64,000 nt of DNA from an uncultured Holophaga sp. (GTDB lineage: Bacteria; Acidobacteriota; Holophagae; Holophagales; Holophagaceae). The notes below the pieces were generated by a model. The model saw only the letters and a list, made by a program, of their open reading frames with translations. It was not told the origin of the DNA and searched no databases. Both the position numbers and the translations under genes were made by a program. Positions within the stretch are counted from its first letter, which is position 1; every line of letters starts with the position of its first letter. Shown in pieces: positions 50,559 through 62,560 of this stretch. The stretch covers positions 2,912,001 to 2,976,000 of the forward strand of contig OY761614.1 in assembly GCA_963664825.1 (NCBI GenBank), in the 5' to 3' direction.

Positions 50559-50635
50559 GGCTGGGTAGCTCAGTTGGTTAGAGCGAAGGTCTCATAATCC
50601 TTAGGTCGGCGGTTCGAATCCGCCTCCAGCCACCA
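50559..50635 (+). tRNA. tRNA-Met(CAT), elongator type; integration site
   Basis: GGCTGGGTAGCTCAGTTGGTTAGAGCG-AAGGT-CT CAT AA-TCCTT...GGTTCGAATCC...CAGCCACCA. Confidence 0.93.
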
Positions 50636-50650
50636 GTAATTACAGCAATT

Positions 50651-50679: not shown

Positions 50680-51090
50680 GTTGTGCTACAACCTTGCTAC
50701 ACGTTGGGTCTGCGCCACATGTGAGCTTGTGCGGCCATGTGCGGTAAAAACAGCAGGAAGGCACCATGTAGGTGGCTCGAAGCGAACTCGCCACCATCCT
50801 TTGGATCTCATAGGGAGGCCTATTCCCGGAGGTTCCATCGACCAGAAGGCCAATGGCCTCGTTGCAGCACCGAGCAAAGGGCTAGTTAGGAACACAGAAC
50901 TTTTCGGAAGCCCCCAAAACACAAGGGCATGCGGGCAAAGGGGAACGGCCCGAAGGGTCGTAACCCTTTGGGTGGCAAGTTGTGCGTGGCGCATTACTGT
51001 GGCGCCCGGTGGGCTAAGCCCTGTCTTTCGATAGGTTGGGGATGGTGTGTTCGTGTTGCGGCACCAGTTCGATGCACCAGGAGGAGCACC

Positions 51091-51555
51091 ATGAATGAAC
51101 GGAAAGGCCTACCAGTATTGGGTTCTAGGCATGCCAAAAGCATGGTGCATGCTCGCGTTGGGACGGAATCCTGGGAGGTGTTGGAGGAGCTCGCCAGGCG
51201 TCAGGGTGTGACCCATACGCAAGCCCTCCGGAACCTCCTGGACGATGCGAAGGAGCGCATGGCCGAGGAGGCCTTCGGGCCTCGACTCGAATCCCTGGCA
51301 CGCACGCTCCTGGGAGTGGTGGAGCAGCAGGCGCGGCATGCCACCCGCATCGAGGCGCTGGTGGCCATCCTGCGGAAAGTCGAGGAGGGCCAGGCGGAAC
51401 GCGAGGCGCAGATTCTCCAGACCCTCTCCGGCGTGGTGGGGCTTTGCCAACTCACCTACGCCCACCTCCTGGGTGTGGTGGAATCCAGTCCGCGAGCTGC
51501 CGAGATCACCACCTCCGCCCAGGCCAAGATGCGCGCCCTGCGCGGGGAGGGATGA
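51091..51555 (+). CDS. Ribbon-helix-helix relaxosome accessory-like protein
   Basis: VHARV (strand) - SWEVLEELARRQG - HTQALRNLL; AGGAGG RBS; coupled to the relaxase gene. Confidence 0.65.
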   Translation: MNERKGLPVLGSRHAKSMVHARVGTESWEVLEELARRQGVTHTQALRNLLDDAKERMAEEAFGPRLESLARTLLGVVEQQARHATRIEALVAILRKVEEGQAEREAQILQTLSGVVGLCQLTYAHLLGVVESSPRAAEITTSAQAKMRALRGEG

Positions 51556-53108
51556 TGCCCATCATCAAGATCGGGTTCCGCCCCGGCTTCCGGGGACGCA
51601 CCCAGGCACCCACCTGCAACCGGCGGATGCACTACCTGGCCAGCCAGCACGACCGGGATTCGGCGCGCCTGCTGGGGGCCGAAGGGCAGGAGCTGACCCC
51701 GAGCCAGGCCGCCGAGGTGCTGGGAGGGCCCCAGGCCAGCTACCACGAGATCATCGTGGCCCCGAGCCACGCGGAGTGCGAGGCGATCCGAGCCCGTTGC
51801 CCAGAGGATCCGGGCCGTGCCGCACGAGAGGCGGGTGATCGACTGGCGAAGGCCTGCGCGAAGGGGCGCCCGTACGTGCTCGCCATCCACGAACAGGATG
51901 GGCGTTTCCACTACCACCTGGCAGTGGCAGGCCCCATGCCCGAGCGGGCCCTGGGGCGCCACGGCCAGGTACAGAAGACCTGGGATCGCGAATTCGGCGG
52001 AGACGAGCCCCGGATCCAGGACTGGGCCGCGCATCGGCGCTTCCAGCAGGAGCGGGCCCGCCTCCAGGAAGTGATCCGGACTCAGAAGGAAACTGAACAG
52101 GAGCGGCGGGAGGCTGTGAAGCGGGCCACGCCGGAGCGCAAGGCCGACGTAGCTAGGCCCTTCGAGCGGAGGGCTCGCGACCTAGTGGAGGAGCGCTACC
52201 AGGTGGAACTGTGGGCCATCCAGGCGCGCTACGAGGCGCGGGGCAGCCTCGGAAGCCCCAGACATAACGCTGAGATCGAACAGGCCGAGCATCGCCGCAC
52301 GGGCTCCCTGCGACGGCTGGAACGGCGGGAAACAACTCGTGAAATTGGCGTGTTCAAGGCGAAGCTCGGGCGTGTCGTGGAGAACGGTGGGCGGGCCCTC
52401 CAAAAGGGGACGCGGACCGGAGGAAGGATCGCCCGCCAGGCCGTAGACGTGGGATTGAAGAGCCTGGGCGTGCCCAGGCCCATCCGAAAGCTCACGGGCG
52501 CCAGTCTGGTGCTGGCCCAGGAGACGGTGCAGACGGCGCTTCGGGCGGCCCAGGAGGCCGCGAAGGCCGCTGCCCGAAGCAGCGTGCATGTCGCCCAGGC
52601 CTCAATGAAGTTGGGCTTGGGCCTCGTGACGGCCCTCCCCACGGCGGGCGCCAGCCTGACGACTGCCGGAAAGGAAGCTGCCCAGGACCTAGCCCAGGCC
52701 GGGAAGGAACTTGGCCAGGGGGCCCTCCGAACCGGCGCTGCCGTGGGCCAGGGGGTCGCACGGGCGATGGTGGCCACGGGGCAGCAGCTGATCCCCAGCG
52801 AGCTCGGCCTCGCAGGGCGGGCCGCCAGCGTGACGGCCCGCACCACCGCTGGAGCCGCCAAGGACGTGCTCACCCTCTCACCCCTATCCCTGGGCCAAAC
52901 CCTCGCGGGGGGCGCCCTGGACCTCGGCAAGACAGCCGCCCGTGCCGCCGGGGCGAACGCCAGCCTACCGGAGCCCCTCCGGCGGGCCTTCCAGGTGGCG
53001 GGCTGGGTGCCCGTGGTGGGTGTCGCCGCCAAGGCCGCCCAAGTCACAGCCGAAACCACGCAAGCCATTCACAACGCCGCATCCCGCGGCATGGAGGTAG
53101 ACCGATGA
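51552..53108 (+). CDS. HUH relaxase-like protein with an Ala/Gly-rich C-terminal half
   Basis: MHYLAS (Tyr motif I), YHEIIVAP (motif II), AIHEQDGRFHYHLAV (3H motif III). Confidence 0.75.
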   Translation: MMPIIKIGFRPGFRGRTQAPTCNRRMHYLASQHDRDSARLLGAEGQELTPSQAAEVLGGPQASYHEIIVAPSHAECEAIRARCPEDPGRAAREAGDRLAKACAKGRPYVLAIHEQDGRFHYHLAVAGPMPERALGRHGQVQKTWDREFGGDEPRIQDWAAHRRFQQERARLQEVIRTQKETEQERREAVKRATPERKADVARPFERRARDLVEERYQVELWAIQARYEARGSLGSPRHNAEIEQAEHRRTGSLRRLERRETTREIGVFKAKLGRVVENGGRALQKGTRTGGRIARQAVDVGLKSLGVPRPIRKLTGASLVLAQETVQTALRAAQEAAKAAARSSVHVAQASMKLGLGLVTALPTAGASLTTAGKEAAQDLAQAGKELGQGALRTGAAVGQGVARAMVATGQQLIPSELGLAGRAASVTARTTAGAAKDVLTLSPLSLGQTLAGGALDLGKTAARAAGANASLPEPLRRAFQVAGWVPVVGVAAKAAQVTAETTQAIHNAASRGMEVDR

Positions 53109-54985
53109 ACAACCTGATCCTCAACCTGCTCCGCGCCTGGCATGGAGGCGGAGCCCTTGCCATGACAGGTCTTGGGCTCCTGGGCCTGCTCTGGTGCTTC
53201 CTTCGCTGGGCCTGGGTGGAGCGTGAGCACCCTCTGGTCCTCCTGCGGGATCGCTTCCACGGGCTCACCCGTTGGCTGCTGCTGCACCGCCGTTCTCCGA
53301 AGACCCTTCCCCTCAGCGTAGTTCTGATGGCCCTGGGCCTGGGCATGACCTGGGCCGTGGAGCAGGAGGTCTTCGTGCGAGGGGCGTTCCGTAACGGCCC
53401 GCTCTTCCTGGGAGCCCATGCGGTGCTGGTACTCCTGGCGCTGGTGGCCTGGGTTACCTGGAACCGGGAACCCAAGTATGTAAAGTCGGGCGAGGGCCGC
53501 GCCGATGCCCGGTTCCGCGACGTGGCCGAGGAATGGAGCGTGCGCGTGGTGGAGGGTGGTACGACCCACACGGACAACCGCCCCACAGCCGAGTTGCTGG
53601 TGTACCGCAGCCCCTCGCGCCTGGCATGCCGCATCGTGGCAGCGGGCCAGCACAAGGGGTGCAACCTCACCCTGCTGTCCTTCCGCTGGGACATCCTCTC
53701 ACGGCACGTTTTTGTGGTGGGCCCCCAGGGCTCGGGCAAGACCGCCAGCCTCTACGCGCCGATCATGCACAGCTCGCTAGTGCCTTGGATCTACCAAGAC
53801 AGCAAGGCCGAGCTGCCCTTCCGCGATGAGTTCCCGGATCGACCTGTCTTCGGCTTGGACGTGCGCGGACACGCCACCCGCAGCGGCATCTGGAACCCGC
53901 TGGAGGAGATCCGCAGCGCCGAGGATTTCGATCTCATCGTGGATTACCTTTTCCCGAGTGATCCAAATGATAAGAACAAGTGGATCCGAGATATGTCTCG
54001 CGTGCTTTTCGGGGTGATTCTCCGTCTTCAACGATGGGAGAGCATCCAAGAGATCGCACGAACCCTGCGGAAGACACGACTAGAACCCCTGCTTGCGCAG
54101 CTTGATCCTATCTATTTGGATACAATGAAAGACCCGCGAAGCCAGGCAATTGTGCTCACGGATCTAGTCGTTGGGCTGAGCCGCTGGGAAACCGTTCGGG
54201 TGCGCAGCATCACCGAGGGCAGGAGCACCGTCACCTTGGACGATTTCATCGCCAGGGGCGGCTACCTGATGAACTGCGAGGACAGCGATGCCCTGAAGGG
54301 CCCCGTGTATGTCTTCTGGGCCATGCTGCTGGGGCGCTTGAGGAATCGCCCCGAAGGCGCATCGAAGCTCCTGCTTCTACTCGATGAGTTTGGCGACTGT
54401 GGGCGCATCCCGAACATCCAGCGGGCCCTGGTGTTGCTGCGCTCCAAGGGCGTCTCCATCGTGGCGGGCATCCAGAACCTGGGCTTGCTCCAGGATGTCT
54501 ATACCCAGGACTGGAAGGCGGTCATGGAGGGCTTCGGCACACGAATCTGGCTGGCTCGGAACCTGGAAGACGATCTGCGCGAGCGGCTCTCCAAGGCCTT
54601 GGGCAAATTCACGCGCCGCGTCCCGCCTGCCAACAAGAACGCCAAGGAAACGGAGAAGGAGGCCGACCTCATGCCCGTGGATGCCTGGGGTCGCTGGTCT
54701 GAGCTGCGGGTAGCCCTGGGGCGCCTGCATGGATTCACCTACTGGTTCCCCGTACCCATCGAGATCCCACGCACGCCCCTGGGCGAGGTGCTGCCCGGCG
54801 GCGATCCCTGGGCCGATTCCGAGGCGGAGGCCAAGGCCGCTGCCCAGGATGCCCTGAAGGCCATCGAGTTGCCGGAATGGTGTCTCCAGGTGCCTACAGA
54901 ATTGGCGACGCCTGATGCCGATCCTCAGCCCTCTCATAGCCTTGAGAGTGTCATCCGCACTGTGCATGAGGAGGACTGGCTGTGA
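53105..54985 (+). CDS. VirD4/TraG-like type IV coupling protein
   Basis: N-terminal TM helices, HVFVVGPQGSGKT, D.K.EL, WNPL, LLLLDEFG, R.KG...GIQN..L. Confidence 0.88.
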   Translation: MNNLILNLLRAWHGGGALAMTGLGLLGLLWCFLRWAWVEREHPLVLLRDRFHGLTRWLLLHRRSPKTLPLSVVLMALGLGMTWAVEQEVFVRGAFRNGPLFLGAHAVLVLLALVAWVTWNREPKYVKSGEGRADARFRDVAEEWSVRVVEGGTTHTDNRPTAELLVYRSPSRLACRIVAAGQHKGCNLTLLSFRWDILSRHVFVVGPQGSGKTASLYAPIMHSSLVPWIYQDSKAELPFRDEFPDRPVFGLDVRGHATRSGIWNPLEEIRSAEDFDLIVDYLFPSDPNDKNKWIRDMSRVLFGVILRLQRWESIQEIARTLRKTRLEPLLAQLDPIYLDTMKDPRSQAIVLTDLVVGLSRWETVRVRSITEGRSTVTLDDFIARGGYLMNCEDSDALKGPVYVFWAMLLGRLRNRPEGASKLLLLLDEFGDCGRIPNIQRALVLLRSKGVSIVAGIQNLGLLQDVYTQDWKAVMEGFGTRIWLARNLEDDLRERLSKALGKFTRRVPPANKNAKETEKEADLMPVDAWGRWSELRVALGRLHGFTYWFPVPIEIPRTPLGEVLPGGDPWADSEAEAKAAAQDALKAIELPEWCLQVPTELATPDADPQPSHSLESVIRTVHEEDWL

Positions 54986-55482
54986 GCGATCCGGGATGGG
55001 TTTCCTACGGGCGAGGCGTTGTCGAGGATGGCCTTGCCAACCTCGATGGCTGGGCGGATATCGTCGTGGACCTTCGTGCAGAAGGCCTGGAGGATGGGGA
55101 AATCACCCTGGTCCTGCGGGAGCAGCAGGCCTGGACGGCCGAAGCTCGCGAATGGAAGCAGCATGGGTTCCCCTACGACGAGATCATCACCCGACTCCGG
55201 GATGAGCTGCTGGCGGAGTGGGGAGATGTGGCCCACGCGTTGATGGAGGTGGGTCTTCCACCCGCCGATATGCTGCGCGCGGTTCTCCCGCTCACCGAGG
55301 AGAGCGAGCTGGTTCTAGTGGTGCAGGCCGCGCTCCTGGACGGTCCAGAGGATGCGGACTACCAGGAAGTTCGTGGCGTGTTGGGATTCTTCTTCAGGAG
55401 CGAGGAAGAGGCGCTCGGAGTGTTGGATCTGGATGGCGTTCAACGGGAGATTGCAGCCCAGCGTTTGGGGCTCTCGAGGTAG
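54982..55482 (+). CDS. Acidic hypothetical protein
   Basis: GTG start overlapping the T4CP stop (GTGA), GAGGAG RBS. Confidence 0.6.
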   Translation: MSDPGWVSYGRGVVEDGLANLDGWADIVVDLRAEGLEDGEITLVLREQQAWTAEAREWKQHGFPYDEIITRLRDELLAEWGDVAHALMEVGLPPADMLRAVLPLTEESELVLVVQAALLDGPEDADYQEVRGVLGFFFRSEEEALGVLDLDGVQREIAAQRLGLSR

Positions 55483-55684: not shown

Positions 55685-56383
55685 ATGACCCCTACCAGCC
55701 TTTCCCTCTTCGATCAGCCAATCACCACTGCTCCCAGCCAACCCAAGAGCTTCCCCGTTGCCGAGACGGTTGCCCTCTACGGTCCCGAGTCCCTCTCGGA
55801 TGCCCAGATCATCGAAGCCATGCTGAACCGCGTCCGCCCAGGAAGGGCCGAGGAGATCCTCCACCAGGTCGAAAGCCTGGGACGCCTGGTTGCCCTGGGG
55901 CCCGCCGAACTTCAGGCCCTCGGCCTCACAAAGGGCGAGATGGCCCGCTTCGCGGTCCTCCAGGAGGTGCAGCGCCGCTCCACCCGCAGCTTTGAACGCC
56001 CGCGCATTTCCTCCCCCAGGGCCGCCGGGAGCTACCTGCTGCCCAAGGCCCAGGGCTGGACCGAGGAGCGCTTCGGGATGCTGGCCCTAAACGCCAAGGG
56101 CGAACTGCTCGCCGACCGGGTGCTGGCCCACGGCACCGCCACCGCCTGTCTCATTAGCCCTCGGGAGTTCTTCCGGGAAGCCCTCCGCTTCGGCGCCACC
56201 ACGGCCCTGGCCTGGCATAACCACCCGTCAGGGGATCCTACTCCTTCCCGCGAGGATTGCGCCCTCACCAACCGCCTACGCTCTGCTGGCGAGAGCCTGG
56301 GGGTGCCCCTGGCGGACCACATGGTTCTGGGCAGCGAAAGCTGGCACAGCTTCCGGGCGGCGGAGGGGTGGGAGCGGAGTTAA
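55685..56383 (+). CDS. RadC-like JAB domain protein
   Basis: G.ESLSD, EERF..L.LN, PREFFREAL, HNHPSGDPTPSRED and DH.VLG motifs. Confidence 0.92.
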   Translation: MTPTSLSLFDQPITTAPSQPKSFPVAETVALYGPESLSDAQIIEAMLNRVRPGRAEEILHQVESLGRLVALGPAELQALGLTKGEMARFAVLQEVQRRSTRSFERPRISSPRAAGSYLLPKAQGWTEERFGMLALNAKGELLADRVLAHGTATACLISPREFFREALRFGATTALAWHNHPSGDPTPSREDCALTNRLRSAGESLGVPLADHMVLGSESWHSFRAAEGWERS

Positions 56384-56463: not shown

Positions 56464-57972
56464 TTATATACTATTCAACAACGGCATTGCTTTAAATCGT
56501 CCCAACAATGCCAGCACCCCTGGATCCGTGATCTCAGAACATGCCCGTTCGGCTTCGGTGAGAAGACCCGAGGTGGATTCGGCCTTGGCGTGAATTTCCT
56601 CTTTCAGAAGGTGAAGAATCGCCATGGCTTTGAGAGTTCGGTCCCCGGTGGCGGCTTCAATCGCCTTCAGGTAGAGGGCTTTCCCGGCAGCAGTTTGTCC
56701 AGATCGATAATGGAGAAGCCCATCTGTGGCCAAAAGGGTAGTGTTGAGGAAGGGGCCGTCCTTCTGTTGAGGAATTGAATCAAAAACCAATTTTGCTTCC
56801 CCGATCTTGCCTTGGTATGCAAGTGCCACCGCCTTGTTATTGAGAAGAACAGGGTGAGTGGGGTTTGCCCGAAGGCCAAAATTAGATATCTCTTCACTCA
56901 ATTCAGGATTTTCGAGCAAAGTGCAAGCAAGGTACGAGCCAAACGTCGCTGGCCTCGATGAAAAAGGCTCATCCAGGCCCCACTTAATGAACGCATCAAG
57001 AGACTCTTTCCAGCTCCCTCTCAGATAGGCGAGACGAGCCTGTGCCTCATACGAACGTTCAACACTCTTAACATCTGTCTGCACGTTGATGGTCTTGATC
57101 CGTTTCGCCAACCAGACAGCCTGGGCGACAGCATTTTCAGTCGGAGTCCCGAGGCTTTGCTTGATCAATTTCTTTCCCTGCTTATGGTTCCCAGCAGCCA
57201 ATTCCATGGACCCTAAAGCGCTGGAAAGTTCTGAGAGTTGTAATTCAGAGAAGGAGGCCGAGGCAAGCATCTCCCGCGCCGATTTGATATTCACCGCAGG
57301 CGCCTCGGCGACCTCCGAGGTAGCGATCTGGGCAGCAAGGAGCCACGGGTCTCGCACTGTTGCAGGGCTTCTACTCAGAATCGCGAGTGCCCGGTCTGTA
57401 TCCTTGTTATGAATATACAGCCGTGCAGCCGATCGCAGAATGTAACGATTATTTGGCGCCGCCTCCACCGCACGTCTCATCGCTCGGAGAGAGGGACCAA
57501 GCTGTCCGATCAAGACGTATGCGCGGGCAAGATCGGCCCAAAGAAGCGGATTCATTGGGTAATCAATTAATGTTCTTTTAATCGCCGCAATCTGAACCTG
57601 AGCCAACTTATGGCTGAATTCAGGCTCGGATGAAATTGTTGGTGCTTGTCTTGGTTTGATCTGATCAAGAACAGCCTTCGCCAAGGATTGGCTGAACGGC
57701 GATGCTGTCGGAAAGCCCAGGATCAATTCGGCGGCAGGCCTCGCCTCAGAGAATCGGTTGAGGGCCATGGCGCCCACAATAATGTCGTACGCGATGCCAG
57801 GCGTCTGTTGTTCGCACCATTCCTTCAATGAATCTTCAAAATCAGAGGACTCAATCAGAACAGTGCTTCTGAGGGCCTTAAGTGGGCTCAGTTCACCAAC
57901 CTGAATCGTAGTCGCAGAGTCTCTCCATCTTGGGATGACTCTTCTTTTGTCATCTTTAACCCCGAGGCTCAT
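56464..57972 (-). CDS. TPR-containing alpha-helical protein
   Basis: TPR-like segments (PMNPLLWADLARAYVLIGQ..., APNNRYILRSAARL, PTHPVLLNNKAVALAYQG); start 4 nt after the kinase stop. Confidence 0.8.
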   Translation of the reverse strand: MSLGVKDDKRRVIPRWRDSATTIQVGELSPLKALRSTVLIESSDFEDSLKEWCEQQTPGIAYDIIVGAMALNRFSEARPAAELILGFPTASPFSQSLAKAVLDQIKPRQAPTISSEPEFSHKLAQVQIAAIKRTLIDYPMNPLLWADLARAYVLIGQLGPSLRAMRRAVEAAPNNRYILRSAARLYIHNKDTDRALAILSRSPATVRDPWLLAAQIATSEVAEAPAVNIKSAREMLASASFSELQLSELSSALGSMELAAGNHKQGKKLIKQSLGTPTENAVAQAVWLAKRIKTINVQTDVKSVERSYEAQARLAYLRGSWKESLDAFIKWGLDEPFSSRPATFGSYLACTLLENPELSEEISNFGLRANPTHPVLLNNKAVALAYQGKIGEAKLVFDSIPQQKDGPFLNTTLLATDGLLHYRSGQTAAGKALYLKAIEAATGDRTLKAMAILHLLKEEIHAKAESTSGLLTEAERACSEITDPGVLALLGRFKAMPLLNSI

Positions 57973-57976
57973 GAAC

Positions 57977-59044
57977 TCACGCCTTCTTTCTGAAGACGAA
58001 TTCCGCCTTGCTTGCCATCAGATTGAACTTCGACACATACCGCTCCATAGAAAACTGCATGGCGCCATTCCCTCTTGCTTTTGGGTTCCCGCGTCGAGCA
58101 ATGTCCGGGTCGCAAAGTTGGGTGATGGTTTCCAGGATCTCGTCGCGAAATTCGGGATCAATGGCGGGCCGTAGTCGTTCTATCACTGTGCCGAATGATT
58201 TTTTTATTACAGGCAAAACTTCCATATAGGTCCCAGTCCAGTCGCCGCTCCATGTTCTGGGCCGATGTGAAACGGGAGTTACATTCATTAATTCTGGGGT
58301 CATCGCCGTGCCGGCGAAGAAGTAGACAACCATGCTCCCGAGAAGGTATAGATCGCAGCCATGCCGACGCACGTACCAATTGTCGCTGATGTGATTGAAC
58401 AGCAATTCTGGGGGTGCGTAGCGCAAATCACCTTGAACGGGATGAATCTCATGAGGCGGTTTTTTCCCCTGGGCTGCTGCGCGCCCCATGTCCGTGATCT
58501 TAGAAACGTTGTCGTTGAACACGAGCACGTTGGAAGGTTTCAAGTCCTGGTGTGCAATCGCCTGTTTGTGTAATTGCCACAAGCCGGTAGCGATGTGATG
58601 GAGGGCCCGAAGTCTGAGTGCGATGTCAAATCTCCGGGAGAAATCAATTTGAGATCTGACATCTCCATCTGCCAATTCAAAGATTAGATAGGGGACAGCG
58701 CCTGCATCACCTGCATCCGCGATTCGTGTCGTTCCATCCGCAATTGCTGTGGCTATCTTGTCGAGGCGACGATCCCGGCATAGATTCAATATGTCTCTTT
58801 CAAAATTGTACCCTTCGGTGAGGGCTTGGATTGCACGGGCGGGATCGGCGGACCCTAGGGCGGAGGAAATATCGAGAGCTTTCAGGAATGCCTTCCGGCC
58901 CTTCTCGTCCTCGACAAAATACCCCACGGAAAAAGATCCGCCTGTAGAACTGGGGCCCCTGGAATGCCTTTCGATGACCTTCCATCCACCATCAAGGGTC
59001 AACCCAATCAATCTCTCAGCAGGCTTCAGGGCAGGAGTGGGCAT
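57977..59044 (-). CDS. Hanks-type Ser/Thr protein kinase (soluble, non-RD)
   Basis: GGSFSVGY, AFLKAL, HQDLKPSNVL, DMG, YAPPE and DLYLLG motifs; GAGGA RBS before ATG 59044. Confidence 0.9.
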   Translation of the reverse strand: MPTPALKPAERLIGLTLDGGWKVIERHSRGPSSTGGSFSVGYFVEDEKGRKAFLKALDISSALGSADPARAIQALTEGYNFERDILNLCRDRRLDKIATAIADGTTRIADAGDAGAVPYLIFELADGDVRSQIDFSRRFDIALRLRALHHIATGLWQLHKQAIAHQDLKPSNVLVFNDNVSKITDMGRAAAQGKKPPHEIHPVQGDLRYAPPELLFNHISDNWYVRRHGCDLYLLGSMVVYFFAGTAMTPELMNVTPVSHRPRTWSGDWTGTYMEVLPVIKKSFGTVIERLRPAIDPEFRDEILETITQLCDPDIARRGNPKARGNGAMQFSMERYVSKFNLMASKAEFVFRKKA

Positions 59045-59133
59045 TTGGTTCCTCGGAAGTAATCTATTCGCTAAGCTTGGTGAATGGTATCTATTTTCAG
59101 CAAAAGGGACGTCATTCCGGCTCACTCGGCCAA

Positions 59134-59439
59134 TTAAACCCGGGGATAGGCGAACTTCAGGCCCAGCATCTCCGCATAATCCTTGGCCTGCTGGAGGTCG
59201 TCCGAGGCGGCCTTGTACTCGGCCTTCGCTTCCACTATTGCGATGGGGAAGTCGCGCCGGAAGCGAAGCAAGTAGTCCACCCGCTTTGGAGGGCGACGGA
59301 TGAATCCTTTGCCGACAGAAACGATCCGACCATCCGTGATGGACCTCTGTTCCGCGATGGAATGAGGTTCGGCGTCCCAGCCCGCCACCTGAAGCAGGGG
59401 GACGACAAACTTCCTACAGGTGTCGGCTTCAGTGGGCAT
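59134..59439 (-). pseudogene. Truncated type I restriction subunit HsdR, N-terminal nuclease fragment
   Basis: EADTCRKFV.P.L..AGW, DYLL, AIVEAK...QQAKDYAE.LGLKFAY, then a premature stop. Confidence 0.85.
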
Positions 59440-59589
59440 GGTTTGGCGATCAGGGTCTCGGTGAAAAGGGCGATTCTCGTTTCACTCTATCGCTTATGAG
59501 GAGATTTGCTGAGCCGTTTATTCCTTGGTTGGTATTTTCCTGCGAGCCCATCGAAACCAAGAAGGGCCAGGGCATTATCTTCATCGACG

Positions 59590-59829
59590 GCCGCCAAGAC
59601 CGCCTTCGCGGGACTCCTTCAGGGCTCCACCCTCAATGGCGATCAGATCGACTTCTTGGACATTATGATTAACCGTCTCACCGAGCACGGCGCCATGGAT
59701 CCGGCACTGCTCCACGAATCGGCCTACACGGACATCAGCCCCAAGGGGATGGAGGGAGTGTTTGATCCTCCGCAGGTGGAGCTGCTGCTTGGATTATTGG
59801 CGGATGTGCGGCAGAGAACGGTGGCGTAA
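59590..59829 (+). pseudogene. HsdR C-terminal (EcoEI_R_C-like) fragment
   Basis: AAK.AF...L....QIDFL..II..LTEHG.M.PALL.ES..TD..P.G..GVF; no start or upstream domains. Confidence 0.75.
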
Positions 59830-59877: not shown

Positions 59878-60510
59878 TCATGGGTTATCTATCCCAAGAT
59901 CTGGCATCGATTCATAAACTGTTGCAACTTCTTTTATACCAAATAAATACAATTCGCCATTGATGGCAGCTATATCCATTACATCACTTGAATCATAATC
60001 ATTCGAATTTGTTTCATGATTATGACCAGACGCAATATTATCGTTATTTTTGTCAATTTTTGCTTTTTTTATTATAGATTCGTCAAATTTTCTTATTGCT
60101 TCTGACAAGTCCGACGATTTGCCCTTAAACACCAGCTTTGGATCAACACGTATTATTGTGCGCACCCCAGCCGTTGTCTTCATGCCTTTAGGTCTTACAA
60201 TAACGCCTGATTTTTCTAACCCCCTAAGTGCCCTATTGTATGCCTGAGGACACATTCCTAATTCGGGTGCCAGTTCCGTTTGTGCCAAAAAAATCCAGTT
60301 ACTAAACTGCATTTTGGCAATTAGATGCAGTAATACCTTTAGTTGAACCGGAGTAACTTTTTTCGATGTTGATGAGGTTATTACAGACAACAACTTGGTC
60401 TGCTTAAGGGTTACCCAGGCAGCTGCAGGTATTATTCGATCATCCATAATGGTTGAATCATCGACGCAACCGCTATCTTGAGATCCATTCCCCGTCTCAG
60501 GCTTTGACAT
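59878..60510 (-). CDS. RepL-like winged-helix protein
   Basis: QTELA.ELGM....NRALR.L...GVI followed by VDP.L.FKG; AT-rich sequence. Confidence 0.6.
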   Translation of the reverse strand: MSKPETGNGSQDSGCVDDSTIMDDRIIPAAAWVTLKQTKLLSVITSSTSKKVTPVQLKVLLHLIAKMQFSNWIFLAQTELAPELGMCPQAYNRALRGLEKSGVIVRPKGMKTTAGVRTIIRVDPKLVFKGKSSDLSEAIRKFDESIIKKAKIDKNNDNIASGHNHETNSNDYDSSDVMDIAAINGELYLFGIKEVATVYESMPDLGIDNP

Positions 60511-60883
60511 AACTCACCTACTCCGCCAGACACAAACACGAACCACACATACAGCTCAAAGCACTCCAAACGGGTCAATTAACCCTGGGGTTAATGGGGA
60601 AGGTCATAATATAGAATAGCCATGGGCTACCCACGTGTCAAATAGGCAATTAACTTGTGTACCCGCAGCACTTTAGACATCGCCCATAACCTACAAAGTA
60701 GGAATCCGCTAAGCGTAGGAGCGTAATCGGTTCGTTTTGAGTTGGTCTCATGGAGGAGTCGAGGCCTCCGACACTCCAGAGTCTGAACCACAATCCGAAC
60801 CCATCCTCCGAATGCAGGTGGTCTCTACCCAATCCCATTTGAAATGGGATGCGGAGGTGGAACTTTATCCCGAAGGAGCAAGT

Positions 60884-61168
60884 GTGTTGCCACGTAAACA
60901 GCCGAACACCCTGACACCAGATCAAAATGCGAGTCCCTCCGCACTAGAGTGCCTCCACCTCATCACTCAATACCCAAATCGCTACCTGAAGACCCCCCAA
61001 GCCGCCATCTACCTTGGGCTTTCCGCCCGATACCTTGAAGGCCTTCGCTGTGCGGGTGGAGGGCCACCATTCATCAAGCTGGCACCCCGAAAAGTGGTCT
61101 ACGACCTCCTGGACCTCGACGCTTGGGCTGATAGCTACCGTCGCCGAAATACGGCTCAGGAGGGATGA
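60884..61168 (+). CDS. Excisionase/AlpA-like HTH protein
   Basis: YLKT.QAA.YLGLS...L...R..GGGPPFIK...V.Y...DLDAW; AAGGAG RBS before GTG 60884. Confidence 0.8.
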   Translation: MLPRKQPNTLTPDQNASPSALECLHLITQYPNRYLKTPQAAIYLGLSARYLEGLRCAGGGPPFIKLAPRKVVYDLLDLDAWADSYRRRNTAQEG

Positions 61169-61989
61169 TCATGCCGCGGGAAAGTCGACTCTCAGAACCC
61201 CTCCCCTGGTATCCCTGGCAGCCCCTCCTGTGGCAGGCCGACCGTGTGGTCCAAAAGCTGTCCTGGGCCGAACGCGGGCTGCTGCGGGAGCTGCAGGACG
61301 AGTGCTACCTCAGACGCAGCATCCCACCCGATCTGGATGCCCTGGCGGATCTCCTGGCCGTAGAACCGGGAGAGATTGTCGAGTTCCTGCCAAAGGTACT
61401 TCGCCACTTCAAACCGACAGAGGGAGGGCGCTTGGTCAGTCCCCTGATCGAAGGGATTCACGAAAAGCAGGATGAGGCCCGCTTGAAGCAGTCCTTCCGG
61501 CGTCTAAAACAACCCTCTTCAAATTTCCGGCCTTATCCAGGGACCACCGCGGACACCTGCGGACCAGGAGAAGAGGAGATAGAGATAGAAAATAACAATA
61601 AACGGAAGAAAGATACTCCTGCGGGGTATTGCCCAGAGGCGGCGCTGCCGACTCCTGGGCAGGACGACACCGGCCTCACTCTTCCCTGCAATGGAAGCGG
61701 GCCACAGAGTTGGCCCATAACACCCCAACTGCTCTCTAAGTGGGCGCTGGCATTCCCCGGAGTCAACCTCCAAGCTGAGAGTCAAAAAATGCGCCTCTGG
61801 TTGGAGCAAAACCCCAAAAAGGGCAAAACCTACGCTGGAATGTCGCGATTCACGCTGGCATGGCTTTCTCGGTCCCAGGACCAGGGAGGCTCTTCCCGCG
61901 AAGGTAATTCCATGAGGAAGAGGCCCGAGTCAGACCTGAGCGCTCAACTCGAACAAATCGATTGGAATGGAGATGTAAATGCACAATAG
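61165..61989 (+). CDS. Phage-type replication initiator (YdaU/DUF1376-like N-terminus)
   Basis: LPWYPW....W.AD.....LS..ERG...L; C-terminal W...FP.V......KM..WL..NP.K.KT..G..RF...WL.R.QD. Confidence 0.7.
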   Translation: MIMPRESRLSEPLPWYPWQPLLWQADRVVQKLSWAERGLLRELQDECYLRRSIPPDLDALADLLAVEPGEIVEFLPKVLRHFKPTEGGRLVSPLIEGIHEKQDEARLKQSFRRLKQPSSNFRPYPGTTADTCGPGEEEIEIENNNKRKKDTPAGYCPEAALPTPGQDDTGLTLPCNGSGPQSWPITPQLLSKWALAFPGVNLQAESQKMRLWLEQNPKKGKTYAGMSRFTLAWLSRSQDQGGSSREGNSMRKRPESDLSAQLEQIDWNGDVNAQ

Positions 61990-62560
61990 GACGCTGTTTC
62001 TGCTCGAACATATTGGGCTTGCCCCAAAGGAACTGAATTACCTGGGTCAAGAGGCCATCCTGCAGGTTCCCCACCGTCCGAGTGGGTACGGCTTGGTTGG
62101 TAGCACGGGCACAGGTAAGACCTGCCATTTGGCCCGAGGGTTAGGGCAGACGATCGAGGCCATAGTTTTGGTGGCACCTGAACCTGCCCGCGCTTGTCTC
62201 CCCCGGAATGGATTTCGCTGGATTAATTGGCCTATGCGTGTTGAGAAAATCAAGCGTCTGGTCTCGAACAAACAATTCCAAGATATCGACGAAATAGTCT
62301 CAAGCCTCGCAGACGTGGGGCAGCTCTATCTCGATGATCTCGGGCGGGAGCGCATCGCCAATGACCATGACTATGGTGTTGGAATCCTCGCCGAGATTAT
62401 CGACCACCGCTACCGGCACAACCTGCCAATCTTCTGGAGCTCAAATTTCGCCCCTCAGGAACTCCTGGGGAAGTATCATGACGCGATCATCAGCAGGCTC
62501 GTCTCAACTTGGCCGCCAATCGTGATCAAGGGGAAGGACTTGAGGCTGCCTGAACGCTAA
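61979..62560 (+). CDS. DnaC/IstB-like AAA+ ATPase (helicase loader)
   Basis: GSTGTGKT, LYLDDLGRE, IID.RY, SSN and SRL motifs. Confidence 0.82.
   Translation: MHNRTLFLLEHIGLAPKELNYLGQEAILQVPHRPSGYGLVGSTGTGKTCHLARGLGQTIEAIVLVAPEPARACLPRNGFRWINWPMRVEKIKRLVSNKQFQDIDEIVSSLADVGQLYLDDLGRERIANDHDYGVGILAEIIDHRYRHNLPIFWSSNFAPQELLGKYHDAIISRLVSTWPPIVIKGKDLRLPER

Follow-up and report, generated by a model that had tools for sequence, protein, structure and literature searches.

Several described anti-phage systems invite comparison with the two-gene locus considered here, in which a serine/threonine kinase gene is followed by a gene for a tetratricopeptide repeat (TPR) protein; the locus lies in a 64,000-nucleotide stretch of an uncultured Holophaga sp. 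genome (assembly GCA_963664825.1, contig OY761614.1, positions 2,912,001 to 2,976,000), referred to below as the window. In Staphylococcus, a phage protein has been proposed to activate the kinase Stk2, which would then bring about cell death through phosphorylation (Depardieu et al. 2016, as related in passages of the review PMC13276650), and the TPR repeats of Avs and other STAND NTPase sensors have been proposed to sense phage proteins (same passages). DS-6, in passages of the DefensePredictor paper (PMC13092281), combines a HipA-like kinase with DUF3037/DUF1829; kinase activity is needed for its protection and a toxin-antitoxin-like action has been proposed. BcTir/Tpr of Bacillus cereus is an anti-phage operon of two genes; their products, one of them a TPR protein, form a complex (parts of bioRxiv 10.1101/2023.05.26.542521). 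PADLOC-DB v2.0.0 further lists PDC-M71, a computational phage defence candidate; the PDC systems are predictions based on genes nested in BREX, DISARM or type I restriction-modification (RM) systems (parts of Payne et al. 2024, bioRxiv 10.1101/2024.01.29.577857).

Family membership and comparison with described systems

By sequence, the kinase-TPR pair belongs to the candidate anti-phage family PDC-M71. The kinase matches the model PDLC04780 (PDC-M71A) at E 2.3e-114 (380 bits, profile positions 5-349 of 352), with the next-best PADLOC family at 67 bits, and the TPR protein matches PDLC04781 (PDC-M71B) at E 2.3e-124 (positions 1-487 of 515) and a second model, PDLC04782, at E 1.1e-51. Both gene models are thus matched near full length, in the same order and on the same strand, and nothing substantive differs between the family and the window pair. 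An earlier note, made from the letters of the window, had located both genes correctly; the open reading frames (ORFs) confirm these positions, on the minus strand (Table 1). It had also put them forward as an undescribed system and had itself named a match to a described one as a ground for withdrawing that claim; because the pair matches a listed system, albeit one that is itself a prediction, 'undescribed' is wrong. The locus adds one more member to a catalogued candidate family and is not a discovery. What is new here are the positions of relatives in P2 and P4 hotspots, a predicted model of the kinase-TPR complex and a predicted self-threaded arm in the TPR protein.

Stk2, like PDC-M71A, is a eukaryotic-like kinase and sets a precedent for cell death brought about by a kinase that phage activates; however, it is a single gene without a dedicated TPR partner, and its model is matched in the kinase core only (E 1.5e-5, profile positions 216-312 of 500), well short of full length. 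The Hanks kinase core, and that core only, is also shared with PD-T4-6, MADS mad6 and Mokosh MkoA (E 1e-14, 3e-19 and 2e-9): the best PD-T4-6 model (E 1.1e-14) is likewise covered only in part, over positions 74-202 of 327, NCBIfam MAD6 scores 31.9 bits against a cut-off of 460, and none of the other genes of these three systems was found in the window. DS-6 is also a two-gene system with a kinase, but that kinase is of the HipA family and its partner is unrelated, whereas BcTir/Tpr has no kinase and combines a TIR partner with an NADase domain in the BcTpr protein. In contrast to Avs, PDC-M71 would have separate sensor and effector proteins; Pfam and PADLOC scans of the kinase and the TPR protein found no STAND NTPase domain, and the TPR model consists entirely of helical repeats. 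Identity as PD-T4-6, Stk2, MADS or Avs is ruled out by these core-only, sub-cut-off or absent domain matches.

Searches of full-text literature, a body of text from which subscription papers are mostly absent, turned up no experiments on PDC-M71 or on any two-gene defence composed of a Hanks kinase and a TPR protein. Among the parts of main texts searched, the name PDC-M71 occurs in one paper only, an ecological soil survey. Passages of the DefensePredictor paper and part of its supplement did not yield the family by accession, name or five short motifs, nor was a kinase-TPR pair found in passages of Rousset et al. 2022 (PMC9122126) and most of its supplement; M71 is not among the eight PDC/HEC candidates tested experimentally in a cold-seep paper. 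The family is large, widespread and present in Escherichia coli, and kinase-based bacterial immunity has few worked-out cases. At E<=1e-30, 2,511 clusters (50% identity) score against the TPR profile, some of which may be general TPR proteins.

An intact kinase of the non-RD type

The kinase carries the intact motifs reported in the earlier note: besides the catalytic loop, DMG is found at residues 185-187 and APPE at residues 210-213, and the protein matches Pfam Pkinase at E 5e-17. The full Hanks set is present (K55, alphaC E82, HxD D167, N172, D185 at the DFG position and APE E213), and five catalytic residues are all retained in 131 of 134 aligned relatives. The structural model (pLDDT 95.6) is a bare kinase domain without any extra domain, in agreement with the soluble, sensor-less protein proposed previously, and superimposes on a solved kinase with Z 25.1 and an rmsd of 2.9 A over 269 residues. 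Structure searches revealed no solved relative of either the kinase or the TPR protein above general-fold level. The longest kinase ORF (57977-59125, 382 aa) begins with GTG; because a GAGGA lies 5 nt upstream of the ATG at 59044 and the 355-aa product is present in the protein collection (entry P0079), this ATG is the likely start. At one related locus (L001:2712-4577) the kinase ORF reaches 621 aa and its upstream part matches Aconitase_C (E 5e-10), which is probably a read-through of a same-frame neighbour gene and not a true fusion.

RD kinases of the PknB/PknA type have an Arg before the catalytic Asp and an activation-loop Thr, and neither feature is conserved in PDC-M71A. The residue preceding the catalytic Asp is Q in 127/134 relatives and R in 1/134, bearing out the earlier assignment as non-RD; in the activation segment (residues 182-207) no position is Ser/Thr in more than 50% of the relatives, and G-D is found where PknA has G-T. 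Since a conserved activation-loop Ser/Thr is lacking and G-D replaces G-T, loop phosphorylation is unlikely to be the means of control, and control by the partner appears more likely. A likeness to Wee1-type tyrosine kinases, prompted by G-D-x-x-Y and KPSN motifs, found no support, as Wee1 ranks 49/50 in the fold list, amid many kinases, and is absent from the 60 best sequence matches.

Predicted kinase-TPR complex

Modelling predicts that the TPR N-domain binds the kinase directly and covers its substrate face. The 1:1 complex scored 0.84 (runs 0.84, 0.88 and 0.84) against 0.00 for the best of three controls, and the runs share at least 80% of contacts, with a partner pLDDT of at least 84. 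The score mark used is reached by 116/157 solved complexes and 2/215 mismatched pairs, counts that apply only approximately to the alignments used here. No similar complex was found in structure searches, so that the prediction is unlikely to be a recall of a solved structure.

The predicted interface comprises residues 19-144 and 172-178 (N-domain) on the TPR side and residues 28, 37, 130-137, 170-171, 201-208 and 244-294 on the kinase side, where the contacts fall in the G-loop, alphaD, catalytic loop and P+1 loop, and in the C-lobe. The G-loop, alphaD, catalytic loop and P+1 loop form the substrate-binding face of kinases. Arm residues 10-17 of the TPR protein and its invariant repeat residues past 178 lie outside the interface. 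Covariation between the two proteins gave no independent support for the interface (7/50 top pairs within it, 3.75 expected) and is uninformative because the pairs (126) are too few.

The model also bears on a reading in which the TPR protein is both the substrate of the kinase and the anti-phage effector, its N-terminal phosphorylation switching it on through oligomerisation or binding of a host target. TPR residues 19-72 are placed against the kinase substrate face, and Ser or Thr occupies positions 22 and 57 in 80% of 150 relatives. However, domain and structure searches recognised no enzymatic or membrane domain in the TPR protein, the linker 29-42, which is closest to the predicted contact, is poorly conserved (0.18), and Thr57 may be only a helix cap. 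We consider this reading improbable.

The TPR protein and its N-terminal arm

The TPR protein (N-terminus MSLGVKDDKRRVIPRWRDSATT...GELSPL) is matched by 7 listed TPR-type families of Pfam, 3 of them above cut-off. Its model is all-helical (pLDDT 93.8), with an extended N-terminal arm that precedes a four-helix N-domain (43-105) and some nine helical hairpins. Conservation is highest in the arm, whose RxVIPRWR motif is found in 126/150 aligned relatives, and at polar and aromatic positions within the repeats (R176, R180, R184, H188, D208, W210, E248, N280, Q284, E309, W331, D334, N378 and N379); the invariant polar residues fall mostly within 176-459, away from the predicted kinase interface.

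Mean-field covariation of 332 sequences placed 11 arm-to-body pairs in the top 100, a number near chance (~8, our own estimate), including R11-E335 (rank 17), S19-L143, I13-I187, V12-S251, R17-D334 and R15-E279. The body partners lie on assigned groove-lining helices in 8/11 pairs (29% expected, p 0.004) and on D334/E335 in the remaining three. Because the partners concentrate on the groove-lining helices, this pattern suggests that the arm threads through the protein's own groove. The best structural neighbours of the model are APC/C subunits (Cut9-Hcn1, CDC26-APC6) and AimR, NprR and Rap (Z 12-15, rmsd 5-11 A), although with an identity of 9-14% and Z values within the general helical-repeat range. 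APC/C TPR subunits, AimR, NprR and Rap bind an extended peptide in the groove, whereas in PDC-M71B the N-terminus of the protein itself appears to take the place of that peptide. A search of the ESM Atlas returned generic TPR clusters only.

Two variants of the protein were also observed. In an enterobacterial subfamily (L064:10001-11635, L189:7071-8705) RLLLPEW replaces RxVIPRWR while most groove residues are retained, a natural variant relevant to the idea of the arm as a latch, and two 657-aa relatives (P0019 and P0245) carry about 150 additional C-terminal residues, possibly a fused domain.

Gene pairing, decay and distribution

The two-gene arrangement, with the 502-aa TPR protein encoded 4 nt after the kinase as noted earlier, is conserved among homologues. 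In a TPR-anchored survey of the best 80 of 104 genome loci, the kinase lies directly upstream in 75; four of the others are at contig edges and one has truly lost it (75/76 assessable loci), the first ~125 TPR residues being gone as well in that case (L054). The gap between the two genes is within -30 to +30 nt in 74/75 related loci, with -4 the commonest value. In a kinase-anchored survey of the best 80 of 406 metagenome loci, the TPR gene is next in 72, six loci are at contig edges and two lack it (72/74 assessable loci), one with an intact kinase (L111) and one with a truncated kinase (L153). Both surveys favour loci with an intact anchor gene. Among viral loci, 13/14 are family members and 13/13 of these are paired. 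Pairwise identities of the two proteins are correlated (Mantel r 0.78, 65 pairs), which is not evidence of physical co-evolution because kin share both genes.

Insertion sequences interrupt the kinase at two loci (L031 and L061) and in an E. coli IS5 event, which in 6 related E. coli genomes removes the last helix of the kinase, and the TPR gene in L143; in L011 both genes are broken. No significant difference between kinase and TPR was found in the polarity of insertion (p 0.66; L011 was counted in this test although both its genes proved to be broken, which leaves two loci and the E. coli event on the kinase side), and since insertions strike either gene, decay of the pair has no clear direction.

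Named hosts of the family include Acidobacteriota, Chloroflexota, Planctomycetota, Bacteroidota, Actinomycetota and Pseudomonadota, among others. The closest named relatives of both proteins are in Geothrix sp. PMB-07 (63% and 73% identity). A copy from Enterobacter (annotated as WP_164715493.1 and WP_049121198.1) shares at least 99.9% identity with those of 13/5426 E. coli genomes and sits on an island with a MobQ relaxase; the E. coli island also has a separate TPR and TIR two-gene cassette (L101:23133-24819) about 5 kb downstream of the pair. The GC content of the pair is below that of the distal flanks in 47/49 long loci. Three plasmid matches were found, and among 50,697 GenBank phage records the TPR protein had no match and the kinase weak matches only.

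Defence context and probable anti-phage function

Neighbourhoods were scanned at 79 loci with simple length-and-composition ORF calls, taking the three nearest ORFs on each side (429/949 called ORFs) and a PADLOC cut-off of E<=1e-40; the control consisted of 106 ORFs from 19 stretches distributed across the genome to which the window belongs. Defence genes are enriched near the homologues, with matches in 43/429 neighbour ORFs against 2/106 control ORFs (Fisher p 0.005), both control matches being general families. After removal of four doubtful matches (RmuC, IstB scored as DrmD, DinG and a partial mad3) 39/429 remain (p 0.013). The matches are mostly RM, DISARM, Hma, CBASS, Pycsar, Septu and other PDC genes. 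Type I RM genes lie beside the pair in L010, L054 and L078, and in L031 and L038 the pair is found between hmaA and hmaB.

More telling than these counts are the Hma positions and those in known hotspots. In a P4-like element (L189) the pair stands alone between psu and the integrase gene, and in two P2-like prophages (L190, L195) it is flanked by gpA and the portal gene; these copies are recognised by both PDC-M71 models and have 29% and 34% identity to the window proteins. The psu-integrase position of P4 and the gpA-portal position of P2 are described as anti-phage hotspots in passages of Rousset et al. 2022 (PMC9122126). From this genomic context, it is probable that the PDC-M71 pair has an anti-phage function.

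A non-defence role as a signalling pair in stress or metabolic regulation would be in keeping with the frequency of kinases and TPR proteins in ordinary signalling, and 12 further kinase matches besides PDC-M71A were found in the host genome. Such a role is nevertheless highly improbable, given the patchy presence of the pair (2/133 genomes of the window's host family), its low GC, its horizontal spread and its defence-rich and hotspot contexts.

Further arrangements were seen in single neighbourhoods. In L026:5674-15704 the pair is flanked by a CBASS-type cyclase and PDC-M32A immediately upstream and by a type III RM system immediately downstream. Two loci have Menshen NsnB-like genes (L038:7302-8884 and L059:6336-8242) immediately before the pair, and in L038 the NsnB-like gene and the pair are nested together inside Hma.

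Mechanism and alternatives

The most likely reading, which we hold tentatively, is that of a TPR-gated kinase, in which the TPR protein covers the kinase until a phage product binds, followed by abortive infection. Coupled translation would yield a 1:1 kinase-TPR complex, in which the TPR N-domain may keep the substrate face of the kinase covered, presumably as an inhibitor. A phage product acting on the conserved TPR groove, the putative site of phage sensing, or on the arm would then shift the N-domain, and the released kinase would phosphorylate host or phage proteins, a step that might abort the infection. The observations beneath this proposal are the family membership, the intact catalytic residues, the near-obligate coupled pairing and the mobile, defence-rich context.

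Several points weigh against it. If the arm fills the groove permanently, the groove would serve as a structural core instead of a sensor. A modelled contact over the substrate face fits the TPR protein as substrate or adaptor equally with inhibitor, and the predicted interface is not specially conserved (0.40 vs 0.47 for the whole protein). In L111 the intact kinase has no TPR gene and is followed instead by a type II RM pair, in L143 an IS66 interrupts the TPR gene after about 68 residues beside an intact kinase, and in L042, L120 and L144 an intact kinase adjoins a TPR gene whose frame is disrupted, sequencing errors being possible in these three; L111 and L143 count against an inhibitor role because an always-toxic kinase restrained by the TPR protein should not tolerate TPR loss. 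As to context, the per-locus contrast is marginal (27/79 loci vs 2/19 control stretches, p 0.05), 52/79 loci have no PADLOC match among the nearest ORFs, the control comes from one genome, and the loci are not fully independent.

The surviving kinases fit an alternative in which the TPR protein is a cyclin-like activator or substrate adaptor, also anti-phage, the kinase being silent alone and becoming active or aimed in the complex after a phage product binds. An activating partner is made plausible by the missing activation-loop phosphosite, a tight complex is predicted, and the insertions in either gene also fit. However, cyclin-type activators bind the alphaC side of kinases, whereas the contact predicted here is on the C-lobe substrate face. 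We judge this alternative possible, though rather doubtful.

The same loci bear on the last rival, a type II toxin-antitoxin addiction module in which the kinase is the toxin, the TPR protein the antitoxin, and the pair mainly stabilises mobile elements, its defence neighbours being no more than shared island cargo. A coupled two-gene operon on mobile DNA, the predicted 1:1 binding over the substrate face and the many loci without defence neighbours at the strict cut-off would all be accommodated. Against this, kinases persist without an intact partner, a Pfam scan found no DNA-binding domain for autoregulation in either protein, neutralisation needs less than a 500-aa partner whose many invariant groove residues lie at a distance from the interface, and P2/P4 hotspots and Hma interiors are occupied; addiction is accordingly quite unlikely. 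The earlier note had left the choice between a sensor-gated kinase and a toxin-antitoxin module; the former fits better and the strict form of the latter less well, because intact kinases are found in L111, which has no TPR gene, and in L143, where IS66 interrupts it.

A more specific form of the TPR-gated kinase would be a two-protein pattern-recognition receptor, in which a phage peptide displaces or cleaves the arm that plugs the superhelix, the N-domain lifts off and the kinase is freed. This would amount to a self-latched peptide-displacement sensor coupled to a non-RD kinase, spread over about 2,500 clusters and many phyla, and is in our estimate unlikely. The E. coli-compatible copy and the confident complex model make a direct experimental test feasible, with kinase D167 and TPR R10/R15/W16/R17, D208, E248, N280, E309 and D334 as direct targets.

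The tRNA-Met island carrying the pair

The pair lies in a tRNA-integrated element of ~25 kb, as proposed before: the 47-bp core at 50591-50637 (tRNA-Met 3' end) has a perfect repeat 25 kb away (window-equivalent 75561-75607, G000:C1:2987561-2987607), which an integrase gene adjoins. All 3/3 same-genus genomes tested match the window as far as the tRNA, and none has the mobilisation module or the pair. The GC content of the pair is 0.521 against 0.637 for the genome, a value as low being found in 24/1346 equal-sized tiles, in line with the AT-richness seen earlier, and the pair does read opposite to the mobilisation genes. Genome G041 carries a 71% identical mobilisation module ~2 Mb from its own copy of the pair; because the two lie so far apart there, the pair is exchangeable cargo.

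Table 1. Features of the window at and around the kinase-TPR pair
Feature	Position	Strand	Description
PDC-M71A kinase	57977..59044	-	355 aa, soluble Hanks-type, non-RD (HQD); K55, E82, D167, N172, D185 intact
GAGGA	59050..59054	-	5 nt before ATG at 59044; likely ribosome-binding site, from sequence
Kinase catalytic loop HQDLKPSN	58529..58552	-	Residues 165-172
Kinase-TPR gap	57973..57976	-	4 nt (GTTC) from kinase stop to TPR ATG; probable translational coupling
PDC-M71B TPR protein	56464..57972	-	502 aa; TPR superhelix, conserved N-terminal arm, helical N-domain
N-terminal arm RRVIPRWR	57922..57945	-	TPR residues 10-17; predicted to thread own TPR groove
tRNA-Met	50559..50635	+	Left attachment site of ~25-kb integrated element (ARAGORN)
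Mobilisation module	50929..55482	+	Includes type IV coupling protein; context
Type IV coupling protein	53105-54985	+	Pfam TrwB_AAD_bind, T4SS-DNA_transf, TraG-D_C
radC (JAB domain)	55685..56383	+	Pfam RadC E 4e-33, profile 1-118 of 121; convergent with TPR gene; context only
hsdR N-terminal fragment	59134..59439	-	EcoAI/FtnUII-like type I, first ~98 aa; ends just upstream of kinase
hsdR C-terminal fragment (EcoEI_R_C)	59506..59829	+	Pfam PF08463 E 9e-7; opposite orientation to N-terminal fragment

The earlier description of the pair as lying between radC and hsdR remnants holds in part. Two hsdR fragments are present, the N-terminal one matching NCBIfam NF046051 (E 9e-29, profile 2-96 of 768) and PADLOC REase_I, and no whole RM system stands alongside; radC, however, has a full JAB domain and looks intact. 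The element also contains an IS4. Its largest cargo, just past the window end (G000:C1:2976444-2984930, L100:2444-10930), is the gene for a likely surface protein of 2828 aa that contains numerous Ig-like (I-set, Big_2) and Kelch repeats. A second perfect copy of the tRNA-Met 3' end (42 bp, G000:C1:3017964-3018005) lies 30 kb beyond the first repeat and suggests two elements integrated in tandem. A promoter and terminator scan at the locus gave chance-level counts.

Before the coupling protein, a 554-aa ORF (51444-53108, plus strand) with 71% DNA identity to G041 has no Pfam or NCBIfam match and contains an H-Y-H motif (FHYHL); it is possibly an unclassified relaxase. Beyond the hsdR fragments, a very AT-rich 210-aa ORF (59878-60510, minus strand) has weak RepL/HTH_Crp_2 matches (E about 1e-3), and a RepL gene is likewise present on the pair's E. 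coli island. In the window, the 210-aa ORF is followed by consecutive HTH_17 (excisionase-like), DUF1376 and P-loop ATPase-like ORFs (60737-62560, plus strand), resembling a phage-type replication/excision module.

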